From positions 930,001-994,000 of the forward strand of contig CM102283.1 in the NCBI GenBank assembly GCA_046563655.1: DNA of 64,000 bases. The letters are read 5' to 3'. Position 1 is the first letter of the stretch. Every line of letters starts with the position of its first letter. The position numbers were made by a program, and so were the translations under genes. Under the pieces are notes generated by a model. That model did no database searches and was not told the DNA's origin. It saw only the letters and a program-made list of their open reading frames with translations. Positions 13,079 through 45,962 of this stretch are shown here, piece by piece. This DNA is from Yuukianura sp. NJ FZ-2021 (taxonomy: Eukaryota).

Positions 13079-15121
13079 CTATTTAAGAATTTGCACTCTC
13101 GCTTTGGCCCTATCACTAAATATGTTACAACATTTTGTAAAGGTTTGATGTAACAGACGTAAATTATCCATAACGTACTCGACTACAAATGTCAATACTG
13201 AAGGTACTACTAGAAGTCCAAGCAACACTGCAAATGCTACCCAAATTTTATCACTCAAACTTAGGGTCTTTACAGCAATAATGTTGTTCCTGGGAATTTT
13301 AGTCTTTTCATATATCATAAGGTAATAATTATCTAAGTTTCTCCAAAATTTAACAATTCCCGCTTCCTCCATTGATTTCAAAGCTGGACGTATTTTCGGA
13401 TCTGTTACGCGGTACAGTTTCCATCCAGCGGTTATATTTCCTAAGCTATCTTTTCCTTTGGCAAGGGTTTTGCTACTTTGATCATCAGAAATTTTCCACA
13501 AGGCGTATTCTATGTCAATCATACTTGACCAGTCAGCGTAAGCTGCACTACAATTCTTGATTAACATAGTAAGTGGGCCTTGTTCTGTAATATTATTATA
13601 ATCAATATCATCCCACGGTACAAATAATTTGTCTACAACGTTTCGTATTATTTGTGGTACATAACTACTATTACTCTCTCTGACAAATTTTTTCCACGAG
13701 ATGATGTGCGGATTTTTTCCTAAAGATGCATATATCATTGGAACTATAACTAGCTTTGCATGATCCGGAGGGTAACTAGGATAATCTATCGTGTCTTCAT
13801 TAAAATTCATTTCCTTCTTGATAGTTTTTCCTTGCCGTCTTAAGTTTTCCCACGAATCTCGTATTTCCTTTTGCTCCTTTTTCCAATCTGTTTTATAGTG
13901 GCTTACACCACCATACTGTGGGCGTATATAAATCGTTAAATTCTTGGCTACCAAATGATCAAAAGTGGTAACAAGTGTTGGAACTCTAGGTGAAATTATA
14001 TCAGTGGTGAAACAGCTTCTGTAACCATTGGTAACAATAATAAAGCCCAATGACATTGTGCTTACGATCCAGTACATGGCAGGTAAACGATGTGGATTAC
14101 CAGCGGATTCTATATTATGTTCAACCAATGCAGAATACACAGTTAAAAACCCATTACATTTCAAACCATTGACCTTTGATACAACGTTAGCTGTTACAGC
14201 CAAACCAAAAAGTGCACTAACCAGAATAGCCCAAATATTTATTGTAAATGGAGTAACGAAACTTCTAAAATCTGAGGTATTTTCTAGTAGACCGTCACAA
14301 GTTAAAAATATAAATTTTAAATTAGTGGAGATGTAAGGTGTAGGCTCAACAACCATAAATTGGACGACAGGGTACATAATTAAATACGTAAAATTGTAAA
14401 AGTTAAAATTATTTTTATATTCACCAAACAGTTCCCTGGTCCAAATTGTGGTGCTATTAGTCATTGCTGTTTTAAGTAGAATGGATTCCCATGTACCTTG
14501 CTTGTATTTATAAGGCGACGAATACAAAACATTATACGGGGTTCCACTCCATATCCAATTTTGGTGTTTGTCTACTGCTTTCCATTGTTCTTTGAGACTA
14601 GTTAAATTTTTAGGATCTGTTAGCGAAATTAGTTGATGCGATAAATGGATGCACCGTTGACAAATTACCCAACTTTGCCCAATTTCATAAGTGTTTGACC
14701 TGGCAACATTATGCGAGGAATACCTGTTTGACCTATTGGCGGTATACAGGTTTGACCTTGTGATGCTATCCGAGAAATACGAAATTGACTTCGATACTGT
14801 ATCTGAAGAGTATTTGGTTGACTCCGATACGGTATCTGGAAAATACTTGCCAGCTCTAGTGCCGATATATAAGGAGTAAACAAGAAATTGGTATACGGTG
14901 CGAAAATCTATTCCTCCATACAATGTTGTTGCTTTATGGTACCAGTGGTGAATTAGTGTTTCACTGTAAGGTGCAACCAATGAAAAGATGCTGGAACGGT
15001 CCAGTACAAATTCGTTTAAACCAACATTCCCATTCCATTTAAGTTCATTTTGCCATGGCCTTGGCCAGAGATATAAATTCCGTGGGATGGGTATATTTTC
15101 TGCACATATTTTTGATTCTGG
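13079..15121 (-). pseudogene. 3' part (681 codons including stop) of an intronless divergent IR-like chemoreceptor gene split by the nested insertion
   Basis: Uninterrupted ORF with IR/iGluR-type topology: PFTINIWAILV (M1), FIIVTNGYRSCFTTDII (M3-like), SMEEAGIVKFW (end of S2) and LSLSDKIWVAFAVLLGLL..FVVE (M4). Confidence 0.8.
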
Positions 15122-15137
15122 TATATCAAATGATGGG

Positions 15138-15169
15138 AGTTCGATTTGAGATCCTGACGGAGACGGTCG
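15138..15169 (+). promoter_or_regulatory. Putative internal Inr + DPE Pol II promoter of the non-LTR element
   Basis: Taking the A of AGTTCG (15138) as +1, GGTCG (RGWYV consensus) lies exactly at +28..+32 (15165-15169). This layout is known from jockey/I/Doc-type LINE promoters. Confidence 0.55.
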
Positions 15170-15242
15170 CATCTTATTGCTGCTCTCTCTAATCATAGAT
15201 TGTATTCTAATTTGCTAAGTTGGGATTGTGACAATAGTGGAA

Positions 15243-16028: not shown

Positions 16029-16281
16029 ATTTTTAACGCCAAAATTTTGTGTTTGTAATTTTTCTTTTCATCGACCCCACCTAAAATCACTTTAATGCCT
16101 AGTTTAGTCATGATCTAAGTTGAACTGTACTTTGAACTTTTTCCTAAACGAGTTAAAGTTAGAAGCTGATCATTGTAACATTGTAACAGTTAGCACATTC
16201 CTAACTCAGCAGCTCATCAACACAAAGAAATGTGACCCTGATTTAGCCTTATTGAGCAATTTCTCAACTTCAGCTTTCCAT

Positions 16282-16701
16282 TGTAGTGAAATGATAAAAT
16301 AAATGAAACAAAATCTTCACTACTAATGTCTTTGCAATGTTTTGCAATAGGAAAGGTTATTGAACTTTATTTCAACGGACAAAGTTTGTGACAAGGCATT
16401 AGGAGTAGGACACTAAGTCCTATTGACCAGAGGTCAGAAAGTAGAAAACAGAATGAATCTTGCTGGCCGGACTGAGCCCTTTTATAGGGTCTCAGCCGGA
16501 AACCAGCGGAGTAAAACAAAGTCGAATTCTACCCTACTTTGTATGTATGGAAATCATTTGTAGGCTTAACGTCTAATTACTACAACAAAAGACAAGTTGT
16601 ACATAGGTTGTGTTTGTTAAGAAAAGTATAACAATGATCTATTTTTAGCAATGAACTCTAATGAACTTTAGTGAATATGAAAAACTGACTGTTTCATAAC
16701 A
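16282..16701 (-). repeat. 3' LTR (420 bp)
   Basis: Matches 22621-23040 except for two single-T homopolymer indels seen by eye. TATAAAA and AATAAA are present on the minus strand. Confidence 0.97.
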
Positions 16702-16714
16702 TCCTACCCTCCTT
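16702..16714 (-). other. Polypurine tract
   Basis: AAGGAGGGTAGGA directly abuts the TG of the 3' LTR. Confidence 0.9.
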
Positions 16715-17485
16715 AGGGTTGCGACTCTCCTGAGTTCGCAAATCGAGGTCGTTGAATTAAGCAATTCTTAGCCTTGTGACCGAAGCGGTTACAGGAGAAG
16801 CAGCGACGGGGACGACGTCGATGGGGGGTTTGAGATGTCATGGATGCGACGGCTGCCTTGAGGTCTTTGACATCGGCCAGGACCACGACCGGTTTTCCAG
16901 ATGACTTCTGGTGGGTCTGAGGATTGAAGTGGGGCCGTTTAGGAGGTGGATCCAGGGCAGTCGACATCCGCATGAAGTTGAATGGTCGTCTGACGTGCGT
17001 AGTAGATTGGTTATGGTCCTCCCGTTGATCTCCAGTCAATGGCCTTGTCGTCGTCACCGTTTGTTTTTTAGGAATCCTCCACCGGTCAAAGTTCGTCTTC
17101 CCATCAGGCGGGTTGCAGTTTATGAGTAATGGCACGGACGGAGCCTTCGACATAGACGGAACCGGAACCGGAATGGTGGACGAAGTGGTGTTGACGGACA
17201 TCGGTGACATCGGAGTAGACAGGAGATGCTCGGAGACGGAATTACCTAGAAAAAGAAAAGAAAATATTAGTAAATGTTGATTTTAGAAAAAGTGGAAGGT
17301 GCAATGACCGTTCATTGCATGACACTCCACAGAGTGTCATAGGCAGTACGTAATATGACTAACAGTGAAATGTTGACCTTTGACACAAAAGAGGAATCTA
17401 AGTTGAAAAAAAAAATGAACTTACCATTGTCTTCATCAATGTGAAGAAGCTGTTCCTCTGTGTCCATGTCAATCTCACTAGTCAT
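16713..17485 (-). CDS. Spliced third gene of the gypsy element: join(17485-17425, 17245-16713), 197 aa, Arg-rich/CCHC zinc-knuckle protein
   Basis: Donor G|GTAAGT (17424), branch-like TACTAAT (17272-17266) and polypyrimidine + TAG acceptor (17246). Splicing joins MTSEIDMDTEEQLLHIDEDN-G in frame to the 16713-17210 ORF, which ends HRRRPRRCFSCNRFGHKAKNC...*. Confidence 0.75.
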
Positions 17486-20400
17486 ACTGCCAATCACCGT
17501 ATCGGTCAGGAGCCTTCCTTTTACGAGTTGATCTTCTTGTAGGGGCAGTGACCCTTGGTGGAGGAGATGGTGGAGCAGAGATTTCTTCCTCGGAGGACGA
17601 TGAAATTGAGACAAAGTCGTCTCCTTCATTTTCAGTCCTATTTATAGGGTCGAGGTCAATCACTTCACTATCACCAGCACTGTCACTGTCTGAGTCTACG
17701 TGACTTACTCGTCTAGGCAATGACCTGGACGAATGTCCACTAATTTCCCTACTGGAAACACTCTTGTTATGTTTTGAATTTTTACTTTTGTAACTTTTTG
17801 GTGACTTAAAATCAGAAGTTTCAGCTGATCGTGTATGAGAATGAGTGGAGCGAGTGGACTTGCTATGACTCACTGACTGCTCCTTCTTCCTTCCCACTGG
17901 CGATGAAAGAGAAACTTTTGGTGCATCTTTGTGCTTGTCTAGAGATTTCACTTTTCTACTCAGCTCATCAGTGAACTCACTTTCGCTACTTTCACTGTCA
18001 GAGCTGGGCATAAATTCTGAATTAAAATGTTCTAAATCTCTGACATGCACAATTACCTTTTTTGACTTACTATTTAGCTTTTTAATTTCATAATTGACTG
18101 GACTTGTTTGTTTTAAAATTTTGTAAGGTCCATCTTTTTGTGCAATGAACGCTTTTGAGAGGCCTTTCTTTTTAATAGGTTTTGACCTTAAAACAAGTTC
18201 GCCAACTTGAAAATCATGTTGATGCCTATTCTTATTGACTCGGGATTTTGACTTTTCATGATTTTCTTTGGATTTTAATTGAGCTTGGTGTCTATTATAT
18301 TCTAATTCTTCAAAATCTAGTTCTTGGTCAGAATTAAAATTCGGAAGCTGCAAATCTATCGGTAAAACTGCTTCTCGACCAAAAACCAAATAAAATGGGG
18401 AAAAGTCAGTTGATGAATGCTTTTTAATGTTGTAAGCTAATGTCGCTTGCTCTAAGCATAAATCCCAGTTTTTGTGATTTTCATCAACTGTTTTGGCAAT
18501 AATTTTCTTGACAGTTTTGTTACATCTTTCTGTCATTCCATTGGCTTGCGGATGATATGGAGCTGTGAATTTTAGCTTAAAGCTAAATTCTTCTGCTGCA
18601 GCTTTTACTAAATTTGCAGTAAAGTGTCTTCCTCTATCAACCACAAATTCCTTTGGAAGAGAGTGAGTGTAAATAATCTTGGACTTAATGGCTTTTACCA
18701 CCTCTTCTGCTGTCGCACTTGGTGCGGCAACAGTTTCTGAGTATCTGGTGAAGTGGTCAATGAAAACAATTGCATATTTGTTGCCATTTTCTGACTTTAC
18801 AAAGGGTCCAATCCAATCAATTCCCACTCTTTCGAAGGGTTTCGTCACCTCAGGAAAACTTTGCATCAAACCATACTCAGGACCAATTCTTTTCCTAAAT
18901 TTCTGACAAACTTCACACCCTAGGATATATTTTCTTGTATCACGGTACATTCCTTTCCAATGAAACCTACTTCGGACTGATTCCCAAGTTTTTGTAATTC
19001 CAAAATGGCCTGCTAAATCTCCACAATGCAGAGAATCTAAAACGGCTTTTCTTAAGCATTTTGGAACGACTATTTTCCATTGGTTGCCTGAAGGTGCAAA
19101 ATTTGGAAATAATAAAATTCCATTTTGTAAACTATAGTCCTGTAATTGTTTTACATTAGGTTGAGGTATATTATATTCATCATTTTCCACAGACTCAATG
19201 TAAAGAATAATCGATTTCAAAAAGTGGTCAGATCTCTGTTTGACTTTTAATTCGTTTATTGTAAACAAGTCAGGGACGCCATCCAAAACAAGAACTTCAG
19301 AGCTGTCCATGCTCTCTGGTGGGTCGACTGGGTAACGTGACAAGGGGTCAACGTCATTCGCAGTTTTCCCTGGTCTATGTACAATAGTCATGTCTTGATT
19401 TTGCAGTGTAATTGACCATCTAGCCAGCCTACTATTTACATCTTTAATGGAAAACAACCATTTTAGGGCATAGTGATCAGTGTACACTGTGTATTTGGTT
19501 CCATAAATGTATGGCCTAAACTTTTTAACAGAAAAGACTACTGCTAGACATTCTTGTTCGGGTCCCGAATATTTTCGTTCCGCTTCTGTCATACTTCGGC
19601 TAGCGTAAGCTATGACGCAGGGTTTTCCATTTTGGATTTGGACCAGGGTTGCCCCGATTCCATACCCACTGCTATCACAGTGCACTTCCGTTGGGACATT
19701 GTCCATTGGGTATGACAAAATTGGACTTTTGACCAGACATGATTTTAATTTTTGAAAGGCTTCATTTTGTTTTTCACCCCAGTCAAATTTTTGATTTTTT
19801 CTTGTCAAAAGAGTGAGGGGGATTGCAATTCTACCAAAATTTTGGATGAAGCGTCTATAATAACCGCACATTCCTAAAAATGATTTAATGTCGGTTTGAT
19901 TTTTTGGAATTGGAAAATTATCAATTACATTTGTTTTATCCGGATCTACTTGAATTCCATTTTCTGAAATAATGTGGCCCAGATAATTAAGTTTATTGGT
20001 TCCAAAAATGCACTTGCTGATTTTCAGGGTTAAGCCCGCTTCTTTCAGTCGGTTTAGAACAGTAAAGAGTCTAGAATTGTGCTCCTCAAAAGTTCTTCCC
20101 CAAACAACAAGGTCATCCAAGTAAACGAGTACAATATTCCATTTCAAGTTTAATAAAACCAAATCCATTAAATATTGGAAACTAGATGGAGCATTACAGA
20201 GTCCCATAGGAAGTCTCTTGAATTGGTAAAGGCCGTCAGGAGTTATAAATGCCGTTTTCTCTTTGTCTTTTGGGTCTAACTCAATTTGGTAGAACCCAGA
20301 CAACAAATCTAGTACAGTAAAGTACTTGGCACCTGACAGTCTATCCAATGCATCGTCCATTCTAGGCAATGGATAAGAGTTTTTCTTGGTAATTGCATTT

Positions 20401-21712
20401 AATTTTCTATAGTCAATCACCAGTCTTGAACTTCCGTCCTTTTTAGGAACGAGTATTACTGGAGATGACCAAGGAGAAATTGATTCTTCGATAATATCAC
20501 TTTCAAGAAGCTTATTTATTTTTTCCTTAATTTTGCTTCTTTGAGGATAGGAAACTCGATAGGGATAATTCCTAATTGGAGGATTTGTGCCTGTGTCAAT
20601 TTGATGACGAACAAGGCTTGTTTTCCCTAATTCGGTCTCATCTTCCGCAAATAGCGTTGGAAATTGATTAATCAAATTTCTCAGCTCATTTTTCTCATCA
20701 TTGGACAAATTGTCTCCCAATTTTGGCTCAAAATTTCCAAAAGTTTGTTCACCTGAATCGATGGTGTCGCCATCTTCAGTAAATGAATAAATGTTTTTCT
20801 TTGGTGGACAAATTTCGCCATAAGCAATTGTTGTGCCTTTGTTCAAGGTCACTTCAAAATCATTTAAATTTGTAATCCATAATTCGGTTTCATGATCCCT
20901 GACAATTGAATAGACATAAGGTTGAAGTAAGGCCTGTGTCTCATAGAGTGTCATGTTGGGATTCATAATAATTGAACCAGAAATAATTTTGTCTGACTTA
21001 ACAGCGACCTTGGAGGTCATTCTGGCTTGAAGCCGTACTGTTTTTGTCAGTTTAAATTTATTTGGTTGAGGTTTTTCCTCATTTTTTGAACATTCGGTAA
21101 TTGGTATTTCATCATCAATATTAGTAATTTCCTGTTTATTTAAGTTTCTTGTTGTCCAATCAGTCCCAAGTAGCATTTTTGGCTTGAGTCCCTTCATTAT
21201 GTGAAATCCCCAAATTGTGAGAACACCGTTGAAGTGGAACCTCAATTCAACCATTTCATCTATGCTTGTTTGGCTGTTGGCTGTATTGACCGTGACAGGT
21301 GGAATTTTGTATCTTTTGTGAATTTGACCTTTGAGGTCATTCAGGAAGTCCAAGCCGATGCTGCTAAAATTAGCTCCTTCATCAACTTGAATTTTGAAAG
21401 TTTTGTCACCGAACGTAAGTTCGGTAAAAAGTTTTGGACCGTACCGCCATTTTCTGAACGGTACTTGCACTTTAGTGCCCTCTACAGAGGTTTCCGGAAC
21501 GGATTCCGTAAAGTAATTGATTTTATTTAAATTTTGTTTAACTTTACTAGCATAACTTTCGCTAGTAGTTGATTTATTTTGATTTTTTGAAAAATTTGAA
21601 TTTTCAAATATTAAAGTATTTTTTCCTATTTTAGAATTGTTTAGTTTTTGTAAACTGAAATTATACGCTGTTTTTAAATTGGGGTGTGCGTAATCACCCG
21701 TGACAATTAGTT
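17478..21712 (-). CDS. pol: Pol polyprotein (protease, RT, RNase H, integrase, long Ser/basic tail), in the -1 frame relative to gag
   Basis: VDEGA (PR), SPWSSP/IDYRKLN/YLDD (RT), CDSSGYGIGA/YTDH (RH), H..GHFG..CEVC, IDWIG/VDRG/TERCN (IN), GPY and RRSTRKRKAPDRY. The frame stays open upstream of 21470 up to the gag stop region. Confidence 0.97.
17639..17646 (-). promoter_or_regulatory. Putative internal TATA box for the third gene
   Basis: GACCCTATAAATA lies within the pol 3' end and shares the GACCCTATAAA context with the LTR TATA. The first ATG after the expected TSS (~17615) is 17485. Confidence 0.5.
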
Positions 21713-22594
21713 TTTTGTGTTTGTCTCCTCAGTTTGTTCCTCGGGTAAAACTGCTGAGGAGAAAGAAGCACTTCCCGATTTGGTTTTGTTTTTATGCCAG
21801 CAGTCATCCAATGTGTGCCCTGGCTTTTTGCAAAATGTGCAAAATTTTCGTTTTTTGAAATGCTGATTTGAATTTTTATTCAAATCAGTGTCCGACGTTG
21901 AAGGTGTTTCCTTCTCGCCACTGGAATTTGAATTTGGTTTAGATTTTTGTGTTCCAGAACTGGAACTACTAGAATTTGCATTTTGGAATTGACCTCGTCT
22001 GTCTTGAAACGAAGGTTTTTCGCATTTTCTTAGTTTTTGCAAAATTTCGGCAGGTGACTTAGGGTCAACAAGGGTCATCATGTTTCTCATAGAAACTGGT
22101 AAGCCCTTAATCAATTTTTCAACTTGTTTTTCGGCTGACATGTCGGGGTCAATGACCGACAGACATGACAGTCGTTTGGCGACATACTCAGATGGAGTGT
22201 CGCAGTTAACAAGAAGAATTCCCTTTAATTTTTTCTTCATTTCTAATTTGACCTCATCGGGGTCATAAAAAGATCGGAGCTCAGCTTTGAGCTCTGTCCA
22301 TCTTGTGGCTGCATTGGCCAAGGTCAAGTCACGAATAAACTTGGCCTGCGACCAGCGCCACCATTCCTGTGCTTCTCCTTCCATCAATTGATGGAAGTTC
22401 AGGATCAGCGTCACGCTGTCCAAAGCACCTGACGCCAATAGGGCATCCAACCTCAGGGTCAACAGGTCAACGTTCGATTTGCCATCAAATAGAGGCACAG
22501 AACGGACCACCGCCTTAAGGTCATTTACTCTGGGCAACGCATGCGTTGACCCAGGGGTCATTGTTTGAGCATTTTCGCTTCCTGTGGAAGCCAT
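21707..22594 (-). CDS. gag: Gag (capsid + CCHC nucleocapsid knuckle), 295 aa
   Basis: VPLFDGKS, MEGEAQEWW, LIKGLP and CTFCKKPGHTLDDC motifs. Confidence 0.93.
   Translation of the reverse strand: MASTGSENAQTMTPGSTHALPRVNDLKAVVRSVPLFDGKSNVDLLTLRLDALLASGALDSVTLILNFHQLMEGEAQEWWRWSQAKFIRDLTLANAATRWTELKAELRSFYDPDEVKLEMKKKLKGILLVNCDTPSEYVAKRLSCLSVIDPDMSAEKQVEKLIKGLPVSMRNMMTLVDPKSPAEILQKLRKCEKPSFQDRRGQFQNANSSSSSSGTQKSKPNSNSSGEKETPSTSDTDLNKNSNQHFKKRKFCTFCKKPGHTLDDCWHKNKTKSGSASFSSAVLPEEQTEETNTKN
21710..21716 (-). promoter_or_regulatory. -1 ribosomal frameshift slippery site A AAA AAC
   Basis: The heptamer immediately precedes the gag TAA. The -1 frame reads without a stop into pol. A GGGTG/CACCC stem lies about 10 nt downstream. 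Confidence 0.85.
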
Positions 22595-22602
22595 AGGATT
22601 CA

Positions 22603-22618
22603 GCAGCTCGTACCACCA
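22603..22618 (-). other. Primer-binding-site-like sequence
   Basis: TT then TGGTGGTACGAGCTGC directly after the 5' LTR. The cognate tRNA was not identified. Confidence 0.6.
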
Positions 22619-22620
22619 AA

Positions 22621-23040
22621 TGTAGTGAAATGATAAAATAAATGAAACAAAATCTTCACTACTAATGTCTTTGCAATGTTTTGCAATAGGAAAGGTTATT
22701 GAACTTTATTCAACGGACAAAGTTTGTGACAAGGCATTAGGAGTAGGACACTAAGTCCTATTGACCAGAGGTCAGAAAGTAGAAAACAGAATGAATCTTG
22801 CTGGCCGGACTGAGCCCTTTTTATAGGGTCTCAGCCGGAAACCAGCGGAGTAAAACAAAGTCGAATTCTACCCTACTTTGTATGTATGGAAATCATTTGT
22901 AGGCTTAACGTCTAATTACTACAACAAAAGACAAGTTGTACATAGGTTGTGTTTGTTAAGAAAAGTATAACAATGATCTATTTTTAGCAATGAACTCTAA
23001 TGAACTTTAGTGAATATGAAAAACTGACTGTTTCATAACA
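22621..23040 (-). repeat. 5' LTR (420 bp)
   Basis: On the minus strand it starts TGTTATG and ends CACTACA, followed by the PBS-like site and gag. Confidence 0.97.
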
Positions 23041-23113
23041 CCATCAAGACGATTAATGCATGATCCTGTAATTCGAACTCCCTGTGACCCGTTTAGAGGC
23101 AAATGATTTTTTG

Positions 23114-25015: not shown

Positions 25016-27025
25016 TTATTGAATCGGAGCCACTTGAGTGAAACAACTTTCATTTGCGCGTTCTACCTGTTGAGCTACGCCTATAGCCAGTGGCCTTCCG
25101 AATGCCACCATTGACTTGTCCACAATTGAAGGATCCTTGGTACACTGGTTGCCACCGAACTCACACAGTCTGTAGTGGTGTAGGAAGGCAAGGTGTGGTG
25201 GAACAAGAACAGTCGAGTAGCCTTGCGACATTTCCCAAATAAAGTGATTTCCAGCCTCGACAACTTTCTCGGGGTCACAAATATACTTTGACCTGCAAAA
25301 TATTTCAAAATTTGAAAACTAAGCAAAAACCAGAATAATGCTTCAAGTACCTTTGTTTGTGCGGATGAAGTCTTGACTTTCTTCTTAGTTTCTGAAGAGT
25401 GAGCAATTGGTGACTAAGGGAATCTGCTAGTGGATAGTTTGTTAAGTTGTAACTAGTTGAATTTCCCGCGTCGTTTGGCCACTGAAGGTAAAAGAATCCG
25501 TTCTGGAAGGAGTAGGCTGCAATGTTCTTCTTTTTTGATACAGCCCTTACATCTCTCAGTAGTTGATAGTAGTTGGCAGCTCTGTTCGGCACGATCATTT
25601 CGTCAAAGTCCACTAAAACCAAGTGTCTCGATTTCCCTTTAAAAGTTCAAAGTAATTACAAAATAAAGTAATTACTTTTAACGTAATTTAGACATACTTG
25701 TATTTACTTAATGGAGTCTTACCGCGATGTCTGTAGATGCAGTCGTTGAGCGCAGCGAAGAGGCCTTCTGTCCGAATCTCCTTCTGTGACGTCATAGGGA
25801 GTCTCCATGGAAGAACTGTAACGAGGTCTTTATAGACACTGCGCAGAAGACACGACACACTCTCCCCAATAGTGTCGTTATAAAAAGTGAAATGACGAAC
25901 TCCCATGAGTCGATGAAACTCCATCCACTCCAGGAACTGCAGTCTCTTGTCATAACTAAAGTGAATAGGTTTCACACACGCTGAAAACTCAACGATCTTG
26001 TCAGAAGCAGCCTCCAGGCGACTCTGTCTCTGATTGTACTGTACGCGCAGAAGGTTCGAAGCCAAGCTGGACTTGGATGCAGTGGAAATTACTGAAACAT
26101 ACTCCGGCAGGCCATCTACCGGTGACAGGTGACAAAGTATGAAGCATGCGCTGAAAAATGAAAAACATCGGTTAAAAAATAAGTTGAAAACTAATTTGTA
26201 AAATTGAGGCAAAAAAATTTTTTTGTTCCAAAACAATTGTTTGGAGCGATTGAGATAGGCGAAGGCCGAGCGAGAATGTGAAGCATTCTTGTTTAACGTA
26301 ACCAAAACAAGTCATCGCAAGAACCGTTTATAACCAATCAAATTAAAAATTTAAAATTGGCGCCACCTAACCTGTATTTCAAATTCCAATTTTCGCGTAT
26401 CGGCCGCACGGTGGCGTTGGTCGTGTTGAAGTGGACTCCTGTGCTGTCGTACAGACGACATTGGACCCTCTGCCGACTCTTTGTCTTTGCCGCTCCAATG
26501 ACACGAACAATGTGCCTGAAATTACAGTTGCTCAATTACACCGACGTTTCAACTACAATTCCCCGAGTAATTATACCAATAATTACTACTTGTTCAATTA
26601 CTTGGAATGGTAATTTCTGTAATTACACTTGAGTTGTAATTGTTCTCAAGAATTAATTCTTACGTGGGTATTGCAATGTAGTAGGCAGAGTAGACAAAAA
26701 ACTTGTCCGAACTCCCAGCGACCGGTTGCCAGTCCGGTTGAATCGGACTTGTGTGAAGCTTGTGTCCAGTTACACTTAAGTTCGAATAGTCTTGGGCATC
26801 AGGGTCACTCGGTCTGACTATTCTGAAGACCTGCTTCAAATTGGATGTGACCTTTGACCCAGTGTCATAGAGACGCAAAAATGAGTCTTCTAGTGGAATG
26901 GAGTTTGCGTGTCCTGCTTTGTCCGTAACTGTCATGAAAAGAATGCAGAGCGCGAAGAAGCCGAGAGCGCATGGAAGAATCAGCAAAAACGGAAACCGAT
27001 TTCGGAGTCGATTTTTTCTGGCCAT
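25016..27025 (-). CDS. Glycosyltransferase family 92 (DUF23) type II membrane protein, about 5 coding exons
   Basis: N-terminal TM (FLLILPCALGFFALCILF), KFFVYSAYY, IRENWNLKYSA, ACVKPIHF, FLEWMEFHRLMGVRHFTFYN, EGLFAALNDC, a DxD motif in LVDFDEMIVP, and FLHHYR. Confidence 0.9.
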
Positions 27026-41800: not shown

Positions 41801-44800
41801 TTTTTGGAATTAGTTGCTAAAAGTCACTTTACTAAACTGGGAAACATTAAGGAACAGAGACAATAGGCGATAAATGAATAATCACAGAAACACCCCAAGG
41901 TCAATTCAGTTTTTGCCAACAAAGGCAATAGCCACATTTGCTACGGTGAAACCCTTAAAGTTTTAGTTTTACATTACGTTTTGGAAGTTTAGAAGTAGTG
42001 GCTCAAGGTCGTGGGATCAACACAACGATTAACACCCTTCGTATGACGTCTTAATTCCTCAAAATTAATCGACAAGTGAATTACCAAAGTGTGATTTACG
42101 ACTTTGGAGCAATGACAACTTAAAATGTTTGTAAATCCGTTTGTGAATTGTGATTTCTAATTGACGCCCTTTGTTTATTTGTGTTTTCAGGCTCTGGGTT
42201 TGGACTACTGGCAGAAAAGAACCTGCTCCGACTGGAAGCGAAAATATTCGTGTTCATGATTCTACATCGTCATCGTCTGGACTCAAAGACACGGCAGTTA
42301 GCGCAGAGCCACAAACAGTCCCACCTCTACCGGTGAGAAATGACCCACCAAACAGCCAATCAAGCAAGAATCTCGGTCCCACCAGATCCACTCCGAATCT
42401 TGTAGGAGACACTCGTTCGCCTCTACCTCTCTCAGTCCACATGCCAATTTCGAAGGATTGGACTTCAGACAAAACCGACAGCCAAAAGGCACCGGGAACC
42501 GGTCATGAGAAATATCCAAGTTGGCCTTTCCCCCTAGGAGGTCAAGGTCAAACGCAAGGTCACGCGGGAACCAAGTCCTGGACAGAGGAAACCAAGTACG
42601 CCAAGGAAAAACTCCGCCCTTACGCCACTCCTGGCTTTGGAAAGCCTGGTCTTGAAGGGCTCCGAACATCAACGCTTCCACCACCGCTGGCATACAGGGA
42701 CCCTTCTCAGTCTCCTTCCAATTCCAATGGTTGTCTATTAGAACCGAGATGGCGTGACAAGGGCCCTCCGACGACAACATCGAGCAGTGACGATTTGGAC
42801 TTGTCAAGTAGCAAGAGAAGTACTTATGCTCACTCCGAAGGCTACCATTCTTTCATCTCTGACGCAACCTCACTCACGTCGTCCTTTGATCAACTGAAGT
42901 GTCACCCGCAGGCGACTCCTGCGCAAAATCAGCACTACCTCTCTCAGTCCTACTCTGCCTCACACCTCGAGATTTCGTCAGGCCTTGCAGATTTAGTCAC
43001 CAACGGCCCTTGGCTGTCCGAGGAAGAGAGTTGGGCTGAGGAACTGCGACAGCGCAGTCGTACTTCGCCACAACTCCAAGCAACTACGTCTACCTTAAGA
43101 AGACATTCTCCACCACCTTTGCCAGAAAGAAAGGAAAGTACTGGCAGTTACTCAAGTCTCAAAAAACCAGCTACAACGGCGGCCACTACCAGGAGACCAG
43201 GAAACTTAAAGTTTGGAGTCCCGGAAGAGGACACTTCCGGCATTCGACATTCGACTCCAACAATTGAGATCTCACCGACCATCGATACGCGTCCACCTCC
43301 CTCCGTGGCAGAGAGAATCATTGACCTTGAATCTCAAGCTGAAAGTATTTCAAGAGCCAACTCAAGGTCGAATCTTAGTATCTTCAAAAAAGAAGTAGAA
43401 CAGCAGGCAGAAGGTCAAAAAGCAGTGACTTCAAACGGAAACGGAGCTTGTTCGGTGGACAAAAACGAATCGGAGGAGTTTGCATACTTTGACCCTGAAA
43501 AGCGACATCTCGTGCCAGGCAATACTCTGAAGGCCATTCAGAAGCAGGCTCTTCTGGCCTACTATGAGCGACACGCCAAGAAAAGCCTGTCACAAAAAGA
43601 CCTCTGCAGTCAGTCACTAGAAACGGAGAGTCCAAGACTGGTCCCTGCGCGTCAAAAAATGCAGGCGCATGTGCAGAATGGTGAAAATGGAAACGCGTAT
43701 CCCGTTGTTCCGCCAGGCCGTCCACCCAAGAAACCACATCTCAGAAACCCAAAGGTAAAAAATGAGCAGACAAAAAATTTTAAATTTAAATAATTTTTTG
43801 TAAAAAAAAAATTGTATTTTTGCATTTTTTAACGAAGTCTTAATATTTTTTTTTTTTTGGCTTTTAGATGGAAGATTCGCTGGTTCCACCACCGCCTCCT
43901 CCACGCCCAATTTCTCGACGTCACCACCCCGCCCCACCAATCCTGTCTCAAAAGGCCCCACCGCCACTTCCGTTTAAATCAACAACATATCAAGGGCTCC
44001 CTTCCCCTGACCTGCCACCACCCCCTCCTCATTTCCTTGTAGATGAAGAGCCTCCGGTCGATGACCCCCTCCCCCCACCACCAACTCCTACGGAAATGAC
44101 CTTGACGGCGGAGATGATGGAAGATCCGTAAGACAAAATTTGAATGCATCTTCGTTGCGTAATTTGTTAACTGAAGGTCATGCATACGTTGCGGCTGAAA
44201 CTGGATCTGAACCAGAAAATATTTTTGGCGGCTTGTTTTTGGTGTCGCTAAGTTTCGAATTTCTATTTTGCGTTTCCTTTCCATTTCTACATGCGAGAAC
44301 AATGGATAATGCAATGTTTGTTTAGAGTAGAGATCTAGTCCAGCAAGCAATAATTTTTATAGAAAGTGTGATGACTCATGTATTTGCAGTTGTAAACAAT
44401 GATGTCAACGTTTGATATCTTTTGAATATAGGAGTTTCCAGTCAGAGAAGGTCACTGAGGGTCAAACTCTAACTTCTGCGTCTCCTGCACCACCCAGATC
44501 TCAAATTACTTCAACACTCTCTCCAAATGGTGAGGACTTTGATTTAATGTGATGTCTATCTACCTAAAAATATAAAAAGTAATAAAATGTTATGATTTTT
44601 AGGTTGGGAAGAGTACCACAACATTGGAGTTCCAACGACAACGACACACGACTTTACTTCAACTGCCAGTACAACTACTATGCCATTCTCCGATCCAGTT
44701 CACAAGTCATCACCGCCATTTCTACGTTCTGTGTCAGTCGATGCCTCAAATGGCCCTACAACGTCTAACGCCAGCGGAGTTAATAGTCGTGGCCCACCGC

Positions 44801-45962
44801 CAGTTGCTCAAGTGGCTCCGCTGCGTGGAAGCAAGTATTGCCAGAGAACAACTTCCATGGGTCCAGGAAGCTTCAAGGTCATTGATATCCCTGAGCCCCA
44901 CACTAATCTACCTGCTCTGCGTGGATTTCAACAAACGGCAAAAGTGTCACCGTTGAGAGACAGCAGGAATTGGATGGAAACACGACACCAGTCCACTACA
45001 ACTTCTGAGGCGTCTTCTCAAACAGAAGATGCAGTTGAGACGGAAGTGCCGGAAGCTCCGACAGTAGCTGTTTCACACGACGAATCACGAGCAACCTCAC
45101 AAGTTCCAGCGATTCTCACGACGGCATCGCTTGATACGAAACCAAAAACAGTCATGAGTAGCCAATACTCGCCAGTAAGACATACCGACAGAATCCCAGT
45201 TTCTGAGTGTCAGGATTTGCGAAAGCAGAAAGTAAGTTTTATAAAAAAAAAAATATTAACTATCTTTTTTCAGATGCAGTTATACATATTTTTTGTGCAG
45301 GCAGAGTTGATGGAACGCTTGAGTCGAAAGTTGGAGATTCTTCGTCGTGAGCAAGAAGCAATCGGTGATGAAATCAAGGGAAATGAAACCCTAGGAGAGT
45401 CAGTTATTGAAAAAGTGCGGGGAAGTGCCAAGCGAAACGAATTTGACAAATTCAAATTGCACGTTGAAGAGATTGGGAAAATCACGAACCTCATTCTCGG
45501 CCTGTCTAGTCGTCTGTCGAGGGCTGAGACGTCACTTTTAGCCATTTCACCAAATCCAACTGATTCACACGAAAAGGTATTAATAATATGCATCTGAATT
45601 TACAAATATTTAAAAATTTCAACATCGCGGGTATTTTGAAATGGTTTGGTGAGAGGATTTAACCCTTTTTTTCTCTTGTTTTTAAGACTGTGCTTGAGCG
45701 GAAACGTGATCGCCTGAGGGACCAATTGGAAGAAGCAGAGTTACTGAAAGAAAGTATTGATCGTCGGGCAATTCAAGTGGCGGGATTTTTGAAAACGTAT
45801 TTGAGTCCAGAAGACTTTGCAGACTACGTTCACTTTACGTCGATGAAAGCGAAGTTAATTATTGACGGAAGAGAGATTGAGGAGAAGATGAAGCTCGGTG
45901 AAGAGCAAATGATGGCGCTCGAAGAGTCTCTGCATCACGAAATCCCTGCGACGAAGCCTTAA
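35898..45962 (+). CDS. Shroom: Shroom-family actin/Rho-kinase-binding protein (multi-exon)
   Basis: C-terminal ASD2 domain (ELMERLSRKLEILRREQ, KFKLHVEEIGKITNLILGLSSRLSRAE, DYVHFTSMKAKLII..REIEEKMKLGEEQ), a YFDPEKRH..LKAIQKQALLAYYERH block and a poly-Pro region. Exons are approximately 35898-36736, 42191-43754, 43868-44127, 44432-44529, 44604-45231, 45301-45576 and 45688-45962. The start is uncertain. Confidence 0.9.

Follow-up and report, generated by a model that had tools for sequence, protein, structure and literature searches.

LTR retrotransposons are usually seen as gag-pol machines in which env is the only common extra gene, expressed from a subgenomic RNA spliced to an acceptor immediately upstream of the gene; accessory regulators are a hallmark of complex retroviruses. 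In the plant LTR retrotransposons Ogre and EVADE, introns are located within or between gag and pol. An accessory regulator in an LTR element has been shown only recently, in a nematode: CERV of Cer1, a Ty3/gypsy element of C. elegans, is reported to be a non-Env accessory protein needed for the export of unspliced genomic RNA (PMC10309623). Ogre and EVADE are described as having functional introns that are retained in the genomic copies, with subgenomic RNAs made by alternative splicing (PMC12786077), and in some classes of the Tor elements of Oikopleura the third gene has an additional promoter downstream of the 5' LTR (PMC4402516). The LTR retrotransposons of bdelloid rotifers carry family-specific, captured non-env ORF3s downstream of pol, and since these are not Env proteins the env position is evidently open to gene capture (PMC5408684).

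Here we describe an intact Ty3/gypsy element in an arthropod (hexapod) genome whose env position, between the pol stop and the polypurine tract, is occupied by a two-exon frame, ORF3. The window analysed is a stretch of 64,000 nt from Yuukianura sp. NJ FZ-2021 (GCA_046563655.1, contig CM102283.1, positions 930,001 to 994,000 of the forward strand); coordinates are window positions, and the element, ORF3 and the splice sites are all on the minus strand. On the sequence evidence ORF3 is probably real and of a type new among ORF3s, while the element that carries it belongs to a known type. Like the env (ORF3) of errantiviruses and retroviruses it lies between pol and the polypurine tract and 3' LTR, but it has no signal peptide or membrane span, carries its own short intron and an NC-type knuckle, and is about a third of the length of a functional env of ~600 aa (PMC7998251). 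CERV shares with it a spliced element mRNA, with conventional host splice sites that persist in Cer1 genomic RNA, and a Cys-rich composition with presumed zinc-mediated RNA binding; it differs in its place within the element, its 517 aa, its 5 exons starting in the gag frame and its three predicted folded domains, and its function has been shown by experiment, whereas ORF3 is known here from sequence (PMC10309623). ORF3 has 197 aa and 2 exons behind pol, is predicted to be disordered, and shows no sequence similarity to CERV in an exhaustive search.

The other systems are likewise partial matches. Tor elements are Ty3/gypsy-like with a third gene, but that gene encodes an Env glycoprotein and its promoter was found experimentally, whereas the internal promoter of ORF3 is a candidate marked by a TATA look-alike (PMC4402516). 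Ogre and EVADE are plant elements, and here the intron is inside an added third gene. The bdelloid ORF3s are described as recognisable enzymes or TM/coiled-coil proteins (GDSL, DEDDy), and the words 'intron' and 'CCHC' are both absent from the text of that paper (PMC5408684). HIV-1 NCp7 has the same C-X2-C-X4-H-X4-C pattern with basic flanks, but the ORF3 knuckle is single and stands at the end of a separate disordered protein, outside Gag. In the main text of open-access papers we met no account of a gypsy ORF3 that combines an intron with a CCHC knuckle. The layout is unusual and well supported in the sequence, while the expression and role of ORF3 are putative. If our reading of it is correct, this arthropod gypsy family, with a nucleocapsid-like accessory gene expressed by splicing, would be a second case, independent of CERV, to which a strong RNA structure connecting pol stop, accessory AUG and splice donor would add; it would also offer a compact system in which to ask how a good intron is retained in RNA that an element copies.

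Anatomy of the element and the ORF3 gene model

The element spans 16282-23040 and has the two TG..CA LTRs, the target-site duplication and the gag plus PR-RT-RH-IN pol order of Ty3/gypsy (Metaviridae) (Table 1). The LTRs differ by two 1-nt indels and nothing else, and the element is intact and very young. A search of the 64-kb window for tRNA genes found none. As had been predicted, gag already holds one CCHC knuckle of its own, CTFCKKPGHTLDDC. In pol, Pfam finds RVT_1 (residues 427-587, E 5e-33), RT_RNaseH (679-777, E 2.2e-34), Integrase_H2C2 (888-946), rve (962-1060) and an integrase SH3-like domain (1191-1235), with a weak protease match at residues 103-191 (E 0.03); the pol tail, the exon-1-frame ORF and an opposite-strand ORF at 17029-17277 gave no Pfam match. 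By identity the closest pol relatives are P0012 (58%), P0018 (52%), P0017 (51%) and P0021 (49%). The C-terminal motif RRSTRxRKxPxRY/L, followed by 3 to 6 residues, is terminal in three relatives whose pol is 49-58% identical, and ORF3 therefore lies outside the ancestral end of pol.

Table 1. Features of the element and of ORF3 in window positions.
Feature	Position	Strand	Remarks
Target-site duplication ATGG	23041..23044 and 16278-16281	.	read from sequence
5' LTR	22621..23040	-	420 nt, TG...CA ends
5' LTR signals	TATA ~22825; Inr-like TCATTC 22794-22789; AATAAA 22710-22705	-	read from sequence
PBS-like stretch TGGTGGTACGAGCTGCTG	22601..22618	-	TGG start, 2 nt past 5' LTR
gag	21707..22594	-	ATG 22594, stop 21709-21707; Retrotrans_gag PF03732, E 7.5e-07
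A_AAA_AAC heptamer	21710..21716	-	just before gag stop; likely -1 frameshift site, pol in -1 frame
pol frame	17478..21728	-	1416 codons; PR, RT, RNase H, integrase, Ser-rich tail, conserved terminal motif
TATA-like stretch GACCCTATAAATAGGACT	17634..17651	-	18 nt in pol tail; 16/18 match to LTR TATA region
Structured RNA	17296..17500	-	z -5.59; 0/200 shuffles as stable
ORF3 exon 1	17425..17485	-	61 nt; 20 acidic residues encoded; ATG overlaps pol stop
ORF3 intron	17246..17424	-	179 nt; GTAAGT donor (ATG/GTAAGT), TAG acceptor
ORF3 exon 2	16713..17245	-	177 codons including split Gly, plus stop; first in-frame ATG 17210
CCHC knuckle CFSCNRFGHKAKNC	16761..16802	-	C-X2-C-X4-H-X4-C, residues 169-182, preceded by HRRRPRR
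Polypurine tract AAGGAGGGTAGGA	16702..16714	-	abuts 3' LTR, overlaps ORF3 stop codon
3' LTR	16282..16701	-	420 nt; AATAAA at 16371-16366

The original prediction had placed the ORF3 start over the end of pol and its stop in the polypurine tract, and both placements are borne out: the ATG (17485-17483) lies inside TATGACTAG, which also holds the pol stop TAG (17480-17478), and the stop TAA (16715-16713) sits within the purine run TAAGGAGGGTAGGA, adjoining the 3' LTR. A re-reading of the sequence agrees equally with the predicted intron, its GTAAGT, TACTAAT branch and pyrimidine tract, and the in-frame fusion of its exons. TACTAAT occupies 17272-17266, its branch A lying 21 nt ahead of the AG, and is followed by a run of pyrimidines (16/16) and TAG, i.e. 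the GT..AG ends, branch site and pyrimidine tract of a spliceosomal intron at their proper distances; the exons joined by coordinates give 594 nt, or 197 codons plus stop.

We ranked splice sites by a simple consensus score with a donor maximum of 8.7. On the sense strand of the element 17424 is the best donor (7.7) and 17246 the best acceptor; over both strands of the whole window (128 kb) 7 donors and 3 acceptors equal or nearly equal them, and 17424/17246 is the sole donor-acceptor pair among these sites to lie 50-400 nt apart. The splice signals are far beyond chance. The ORF3 frame is also longer than chance, since composition-preserving shuffles of the 776-nt pol-to-LTR stretch reached a 189-codon open frame in 11 of 5000 cases; in exon 2 the two remaining sense frames are broken by 5 and 8 stops. 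As read from the sequence, the gene model passes every in-silico test that was run and is clearly non-random.

The same acceptor could be used in the manner of env, joined to a donor near the 5' end of the genomic RNA, in which case exon 1 and the ATG at 17485 would be non-coding for the protein and the product would start at the exon-2 ATG at 17210 (~165 aa) or be fused to the first 55 codons of gag. That first ATG of exon 2 does lie in the ORF3 frame, and there is a donor-like GTG/GTACGA in the leader at 22613 and a CAG/GTGCTT in gag at 22428, the latter in phase 1 and in frame with exon 2; spliced messages are said to be the typical source of ORF3 expression in LTR elements (PMC5408684), and the first exons of Cer1 cerv are reported to be common to gag (PMC10309623). 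However, the 5' candidate donors reach 5.0 and 5.5 where 17424 reaches 7.7 and the maximum is 8.7, a matching phase is expected by chance in 1 case of 3, and this arrangement leaves unexplained why the element's best donor and best acceptor are spaced by 179 nt, the donor first and in frame with an ATG, so that we regard it as unlikely. Splicing of donors in the pol tail to 17246, which would replace the Ser-rich tail of the integrase with the exon-2 knuckle peptide, is highly improbable. GTRAGT sites at 17980 (AAA/GTGAGT, score 7.2), directly after the SH3-like domain, and at 18070 are both in phase 1 and in frame with exon 2, but the four GTRAGT sites of this region are accounted for by AGT Ser codons in the Ser-rich stretch, the two others are out of phase, and the conserved terminal motif of pol would be lost.

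ORF3 had further been predicted to have its own promoter. The TATA-like stretch in the pol tail is weak as an alignment to the LTR (2/300 shuffles reach its score), in comparisons with the LTR other 400-nt windows of the element do as well or better, and no good Inr was found ~30 nt downstream. The ORF3 leader from 17628 to 17485 is free of ATG, an A is present at -3 of the ORF3 ATG, and past 17660 the sense strand has no poly(A) signal other than the LTR AATAAA at 16371-16366. The TATA-like stretch is a candidate internal promoter of ORF3, and for separate promotion the sequence offers hints that come from this look-alike.

The ORF3 product and the search for relatives

The predicted 197-aa product (22 kDa) is basic, with a net charge of -9 over residues 1-30 and with P, S or T at 60 of its 197 positions. 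It contains everything that had been read into it: the acidic N-terminus, the Pro/Ser/Thr-rich middle, PPKRP, and HRRRPRR beside C-X2-C-X4-H-X4-C. The claim that ORF3 has no signal peptide or TM segment, and hence is not Env, also stands; Env is ruled out by the lack of a membrane span (the highest 19-residue Kyte-Doolittle mean is 1.08) and of any match to a glycoprotein family, a weak zf-CCHC being the only Pfam family found.

Pfam scores below the cut-off are common for single short knuckles. For ORF3, zf-CCHC (PF00098) scores 14.9 bits (E 0.029), and because this is below the gathering cut-off of 20.8 the knuckle call rests on the pattern. The best PDB match of the knuckle is the first knuckle of HIV-1 NCp7 (E 0.005), with RRCFSCNRFGHKAKNC aligned to VKCFNCGKEGHIAKNC. 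The structure prediction that had been proposed for the 197-aa product was carried out with AlphaFold on the single sequence, and it yielded no fold (pLDDT 48.9, pTM 0.13); the product is accordingly modelled as disordered, and the CCHC knuckle is its sole recognisable part.

An exhaustive HMMER search of 1.84 billion representative proteins found no ORF3 homologue, its 6 matches at E<=1e-3 all being repeat or knuckle proteins, and neither this search nor Pfam revealed homology to Rev/Rex/CERV-like export regulators. A search among proteins of near length gave 14 candidates, none of which scored, and the ORF3 pattern gave 157 matches in metagenomes with no relative among them. The gag and pol of the element itself share with ORF3 the knuckle pattern alone (E 0.058), and no source gene was found within the 64-kb window. 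The look-alikes proposed by a protein language model are gag/CCHC clusters (score 0.84), which serve as no more than a lead. With the integrase part as query, searches found 213 relatives in metagenomes, of which 80 were kept, all at <=36% identity; 12 loci in prokaryote genome contigs, at <=32% identity; and none in viral contigs. In the 80 integrase-bearing metagenome loci, tblastn of ORF3 returned knuckle-sized matches alone. Two matches downstream of an integrase were rejected as ORF3 relatives, that at L025 being the gag of a neighbouring element and that at L074 the gag of the next unit in a tandem array.

RNA structure around the splice donor

The end of pol, the ORF3 AUG, exon 1 and the first half of the intron fold together into a local RNA structure more stable than any other in the element, which is a new observation. 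Among 59 sliding windows across the element, none is as extreme as the one that holds it. The structure is a long imperfect hairpin in which the end of pol, the ORF3 AUG and exon 1 (~17491-17425) are paired with the intron at ~17418-17342, with the 5' splice site at the tip, followed by two perfect small hairpins at 17340-17319 and 17319-17300; the arms are visible in the sequence as inverted repeats, among them TATGACTA/TAGTCATA. Rfam gave no match at E<=0.1. The four listed intron variants all fall at paired positions and one of the four keeps its base pair, so that covariation for the hairpin was not found among them. The windows of exon 2 are unstructured (z from -1.6 to +1.5).

We tentatively favour the reading, to which we give somewhat less than an even chance, that ORF3 is a genuine gene of this Ty3/gypsy family in the env position, encoding a spliced accessory protein and provided with a hairpin switch; from the observed anatomy, signal strength, composition break and thermodynamic stability we infer the splicing, the promoter, the RNA binding and the switch. 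A 3'-coterminal subgenomic mRNA would start at the TATA-like site (17651-17634) or at the LTR, lose the 179-nt intron (17424-17246) and be polyadenylated at the 3' LTR signal at 16371. Its product, disordered, with an acidic N-terminus and a C-terminal Arg-rich patch and one retroviral-type CCHC knuckle, would be an accessory protein of nucleocapsid-like type that binds RNA, namely that of the element itself. As long as the genomic RNA is unspliced, the start codon of ORF3, the stop codon of pol and the splice donor would lie within the long hairpin, whose other arm is intronic; the hairpin would restrain splicing of the genomic RNA and keep ORF3 closed there, and splicing, by taking away one arm, would free the AUG. 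Genomic copies would on this reading keep the intron because the hairpin restrains the splicing of the RNA from which they are made.

A stronger version would be a Rev/RRE-like or CERV-like circuit built from new parts, in which the ORF3 protein, produced only once the intron is gone, feeds back on the 150-nt hairpin, which is found only in unspliced RNA and conceals the 5' splice site and the ORF3 start, and holds genomic RNA unspliced for export or packaging. Rev-like ingredients are seen, namely an Arg-rich patch with a knuckle and a very stable structure confined to unspliced RNA, but we consider such a circuit very doubtful; were it real, regulation of the complex-retrovirus type would have been invented independently by a retrotransposon of arthropods.

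The stability of 17500-17296 also fits selection on the RNA rather than on the protein, with this segment and the CpG-rich 3' stretch serving the genomic RNA in cis (in export, stability, packaging or the regulation of pol termination) and the open frame being incidental. Retroviral export elements lie between the last gene and the 3' LTR, and a structure of the MPMV gRNA is reported to bind NXF1 (PMC10309623); variation at the protein level, given below, looks neutral. Such a module would have to be reconciled with an unstructured exon 2, a non-random frame length, the Rfam result and the one pair in four kept by the variants, and it does not explain the consensus splice sites; we hold it to be very unlikely.

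Composition and variation among copies

Exon 2 is a compositional island (GC 54%, GC3 0.59, CpG o/e 1.12) when set against pol (GC3 0.31, CpG o/e 0.60) and gag (GC3 0.44), and the composition shifts sharply at the 3' splice site from an intron with GC 33% and CpG o/e 0.43. The one host intron that could be delimited, in Shroom at ~45578-45685, is also short and AT-rich and has a pyrimidine tract.

Copy variation was examined in the 40 best-supported differences, a small and selected sample with 1258 further differences beyond it. Ten of the 40 fall in exon 2 and 2 of these 10 are synonymous, in line with the neutral expectation of 0.25; the corresponding figures are 11/16 in pol (Fisher p 0.04) and 3/9 in gag. 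The original prediction had proposed a test for dN/dS<1; in this small and selected sample the 40 best-supported differences carry no sign of purifying selection on the ORF3 protein, and its variants look neutral.

Alternatively, ORF3 would be a passenger, a piece of some other element or of a host gene that was carried along with its intron and is transmitted unused, its open frame reflecting the youth of the element. The foreign composition of exon 2, the host-like intron, the neutral-looking variants, the predicted disorder of the product and the gag/CCHC look-alikes are all as such a fragment would have them. The original prediction had named a captured host or gag fragment as what would overturn it, and no source for one has been found in the 1.84 billion representatives, in the window or in the element's own gag and pol. 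The fit is moreover tight, with a start that overlaps the pol stop, a stop in the polypurine tract and a hairpin that joins the end of pol to the intron, and the region is present in diverged copies while the frame is still open in the active copy. We judge a passenger improbable; should ORF3 be one, the locus would still document the capture by a retroelement of an intron-bearing segment, which is itself uncommon.

A strong intron in packaged RNA should give rise to intronless copies. In a contig survey of four DNA runs (DNA rows n=5, shares 0.06 to 0.45), the 17425/17245 joint is absent among the 15 DNA joints listed (of 15 + 7), contigs being unable to show absence. DNA contigs from two organisms and two studies cover the ORF3 region. 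Among the diverged copies of the region, one 251-nt contig has 27 letters different, and one contig of organism B spans 17176-17658, from exon 2 through the intron and exon 1 into the pol tail, from which it departs by 9 differences and 3 gap letters over its whole span.

Anatomy of the element and its third open frame

The minus-strand element is an intact and very recently inserted Ty3/gypsy element: its two LTRs, each of 420 nt, differ only by two 1-nt indels and by no substitution, and ATGG stands at the outer flanks of both. At its 3' end gag reads A_AAA_AAC and then TAA, and the pol frame is -1 relative to it. The element's pol closes a few residues past a conserved basic motif, which follows a long, Ser-rich and poorly conserved tail, and so does that of three relatives (P0012, P0017 and P0021; 49-58% pol identity); in the fourth relative, P0018, pol stops earlier in the tail and does not carry the motif. 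This comparison marks the pol terminus as ancestral, and the motif may serve as a signal for integrase targeting or for localisation. Since the relatives end just past a common motif, ORF3, the two-exon frame between the pol stop and the polypurine tract, has been added downstream of this conserved terminus; that it supplies an alternative integrase tail is very unlikely.

Features of the element and its surroundings (positions in the window; for pol, GC and CpG o/e are from the whole frame and GC3 from the core, 21728-18000)
Feature	Position	Strand	Characteristics	GC (%)	GC3	CpG o/e
Element	16282-23040	minus	complete LTR retrotransposon			
5' LTR	22621-23040	minus	TATA box; Inr-like TCATTC ~33 nt downstream; AATAAA at 22710			
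gag	ATG 22594	minus	Retrotrans_gag domain, one CCHC knuckle	44	0.44	0.73
Heptamer	21710-21716	minus	A_AAA_AAC, classic -1 slippery type, directly 5' of gag stop			
pol		minus	1416 codons; protease (weak match), RT, RNase H, integrase, Ser-rich tail	37	0.31	0.60
pol-end motif	17478-17560	minus	RRSTRxRKxPxRY/L			
TATA-like stretch	17651-17634	minus	18 nt, in pol tail			
ORF3 exon 1	17485-17425	minus	61 nt			
ORF3 intron	17424-17246	minus	179 nt	33	n/a	0.43
ORF3 exon 2	17245-16713	minus	joins exon 1 in frame, 197 codons	54	0.59	1.12
3' LTR	16282-16701	minus				
711-codon frame	13079-15214	minus	~1 kb beyond 3' LTR			
GT92 exon	25688-26311	minus	glycosyltransferase family 92, E 1.5e-19			
Shroom-like gene	42165-45932	plus	large ASD2 exon, short AT-rich intron (~45578-45685), last exon			

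The original prediction, of a separately promoted, intron-containing accessory gene with a possible regulatory role, was correct in all its sequence details, and the observation is strengthened here; its interpretation is partly supported, in that the gene anatomy stands and expression, promoter and function are putative. The ORF3 ATG lies at 17485 within TATGACTAG as described, the intron has GTAAGT, TACTAAT (its branch A 21 nt upstream of the AG), an unbroken run of 16 pyrimidines and TAG, and the stop codon falls inside the polypurine tract. When the 776 nt between the pol stop and the LTR were shuffled 5000 times, 11 shuffles reached a stop-free frame as long as this one of 189 codons; in exon 2, the two remaining sense frames are interrupted by 5 and 8 stops. 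Its composition sets exon 2 apart as an island, with the break at the 3' splice site, which fits a separately derived module.

By a simple consensus score of our own devising, the donor at 17424 (7.7 of 8.7) and the acceptor at 17246 are the best on the sense strand of the element, the acceptor being the sole one with 16/16 pyrimidines. Over both strands of the whole window there are 7 donors at ≥7.7 and 3 acceptors at ≥15/16, and 17424/17246 is the only pair at these cut-offs that lies 50-400 nt apart; these cut-offs were taken from the observed sites, which makes the test post hoc, but the margin is large. Four further GTRAGT sites lie within the Ser-rich pol tail because of its AGT codons. 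In our view the quality and placement of the two sites are too good for chance and argue that they are selected, which makes a spliced 3'-terminal mRNA encoding ORF3 the most likely product; we give this model as a whole somewhat less than an even chance. Its main rival is splicing in the manner of env, which would join the 5' region to the acceptor at 17246 and yield a protein that begins at 17210 or is fused to 55 gag codons; the phase of a donor-like site at 22428 suits the gag fusion, and we rate this arrangement as unlikely.

A predicted hairpin and candidate expression signals

The RNA between the end of pol and the middle of the intron is predicted to be exceptionally structured and to form the most stable local structure of the element, a feature absent from the original prediction. 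The segment 17500-17296 (minus) folds at -71.7 kcal/mol as compared with -48.0 ± 4.2 in 200 dinucleotide shuffles (z -5.59; 0/200 as stable), and 17540-17266 is the most extreme of 59 sliding 275-nt windows (z -6.6 from 25 shuffles per window; element mean -2.0, sd 1.7). In the predicted fold, one arm of a long imperfect hairpin is made of the final codons and stop of pol together with the ORF3 AUG and exon 1, and the other arm of the intron at ~17418-17342; the pol stop/ORF3 AUG segment TATGACTA is paired with the intronic TAGTCATA. The donor GUAAG lies in the apical loop at the hairpin tip, two perfect small hairpins follow 3', and both branch site and pyrimidine tract are single-stranded. 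As modelled, the hairpin can form in unspliced RNA only, where it would sequester the donor and the ORF3 AUG, and splicing would remove one of its arms; we infer that this could explain why a strong intron is kept in genomic copies. A purely RNA-level function is highly unlikely; exon 2 is itself unstructured (z -1.6 to +1.5).

For a spliced ORF3 mRNA, transcription starting internally near 17615 would place the ATG at 17485 (with A at -3) as the first AUG, there being no ATG between the one at 17629 and it; the next poly(A) signal is that of the LTR. The pol-tail stretch GACCCTATAAATAGGACT is identical at 16/18 positions to the LTR TATA region. The alignment itself is nothing unusual (its score was reached by 2 of 300 shuffles, and other element windows score higher), and no good Inr was found downstream of it, so that it gives only a hint of a candidate internal promoter.

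The predicted ORF3 product and its precedents

The product (22.1 kDa, pI 9.8) has the predicted layout: an acidic N-terminus (net charge -9 over the first 30 residues), 60 P/S/T among 197 residues, PPKRP, and HRRRPRR adjoining C-X2-C-X4-H-X4-C. It occupies the position of env, but is not Env-like, and no hydrophobic span is present (top 19-residue hydropathy 1.08). Pfam returned only a sub-threshold zf-CCHC knuckle (14.9 bits vs a cut-off of 20.8), among solved structures HIV-1 NCp7 matches best, through its first knuckle (E 0.005), and exhaustive HMMER against 1.84 billion representative proteins returned 6 sequences at E ≤ 1e-3, each of them a repeat or multi-knuckle protein with a short alignment. 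A word-indexed protein search found zero homologues, comparison with the element's own gag and pol gave no similarity past the knuckle pattern, and look-alikes in a protein language-model atlas were gag/CCHC clusters at 0.84, below the meaningful level. The suggested AlphaFold check, built without an alignment, gave no confident fold (pLDDT 48.9, pTM 0.13, one 5-residue helix). Given the weak knuckle matches, the lack of homologues and the poor model, any protein that ORF3 encodes would be disordered and basic, with a knuckle of the nucleocapsid type.

The nearest functional precedent is CERV of the Ty3/gypsy element Cer1, an accessory protein made from spliced RNA and needed for unspliced RNA export (PMC10309623); it is unrelated to ORF3 in sequence, size, fold and position. 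Tor elements show that a promoter of its own can serve a third gene (PMC4402516), Ogre and EVADE that LTR retrotransposons can retain functional introns (PMC12786077), and bdelloid elements that the ORF3 slot accepts diverse non-env genes (PMC5408684). Among the open-access full texts searched, none was found to describe a gypsy ORF3 that combines an intron of its own with a CCHC knuckle.

Other copies and neighbouring sequence

Contigs of four DNA runs (two coded organisms, two studies) were aligned to the element, and all 30 of its bins were covered in 4/4 runs. This is a repeated family whose copies have diverged: in one run (X1), 116 of 533 aligned contigs are ≥99% alike and 122 are <90%. 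One organism B contig, with 9 differences and 3 gap letters, spans 17176-17658 and thus contains the intron; another contig, of 251 nt and on 16976-17232, has 27 differing and 6 gap letters.

The best-supported 40 differences (1258 more lie beyond these) fall in exon 2 (10), the intron (4), pol (16), gag (9) and the LTR (1). Among them, 2/10 in ORF3 are synonymous (neutral expectation for exon 2, 0.25), as compared with 11/16 in pol (Fisher p 0.04 for ORF3 vs pol) and 3/9 in gag; none of the 10 exon 2 variants creates a stop, and those in the knuckle or later, F175Y and F189L, are both conservative. All 4 intron variants are at paired positions of the fold, with the base pair kept in 1. The proposed search for purifying selection gives, in this small selected sample, no support for protein constraint, and the 4 intron variants give none for hairpin constraint. 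On these sequences the population data for ORF3 look neutral. We rate it as unlikely that the segment is a passenger.

Several contigs (4, 4 and 7 in three runs) diverge at 22523, inside the gag start, into one common other sequence, as would be expected of a subfamily in which the 5' end of gag differs. A metagenome contig (L074, 1-8484) holds GC-rich gag-pol units in head-to-tail repeats with a 4.2-kb period and 78-89% inter-unit identity, and no evident LTRs between them.

The 711-codon frame has no Pfam match; in the protein language-model atlas it falls with arthropod clusters (0.97) adjoining ionotropic-receptor clusters (0.90-0.92), and probably represents a host gene of IR-like type, divergent and without introns. 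Judging from its genes the host is an animal: the best named relatives of the Shroom ASD2 exon are springtail proteins, at 43% identity where 51% of the query is aligned and at 61% where 28% is.
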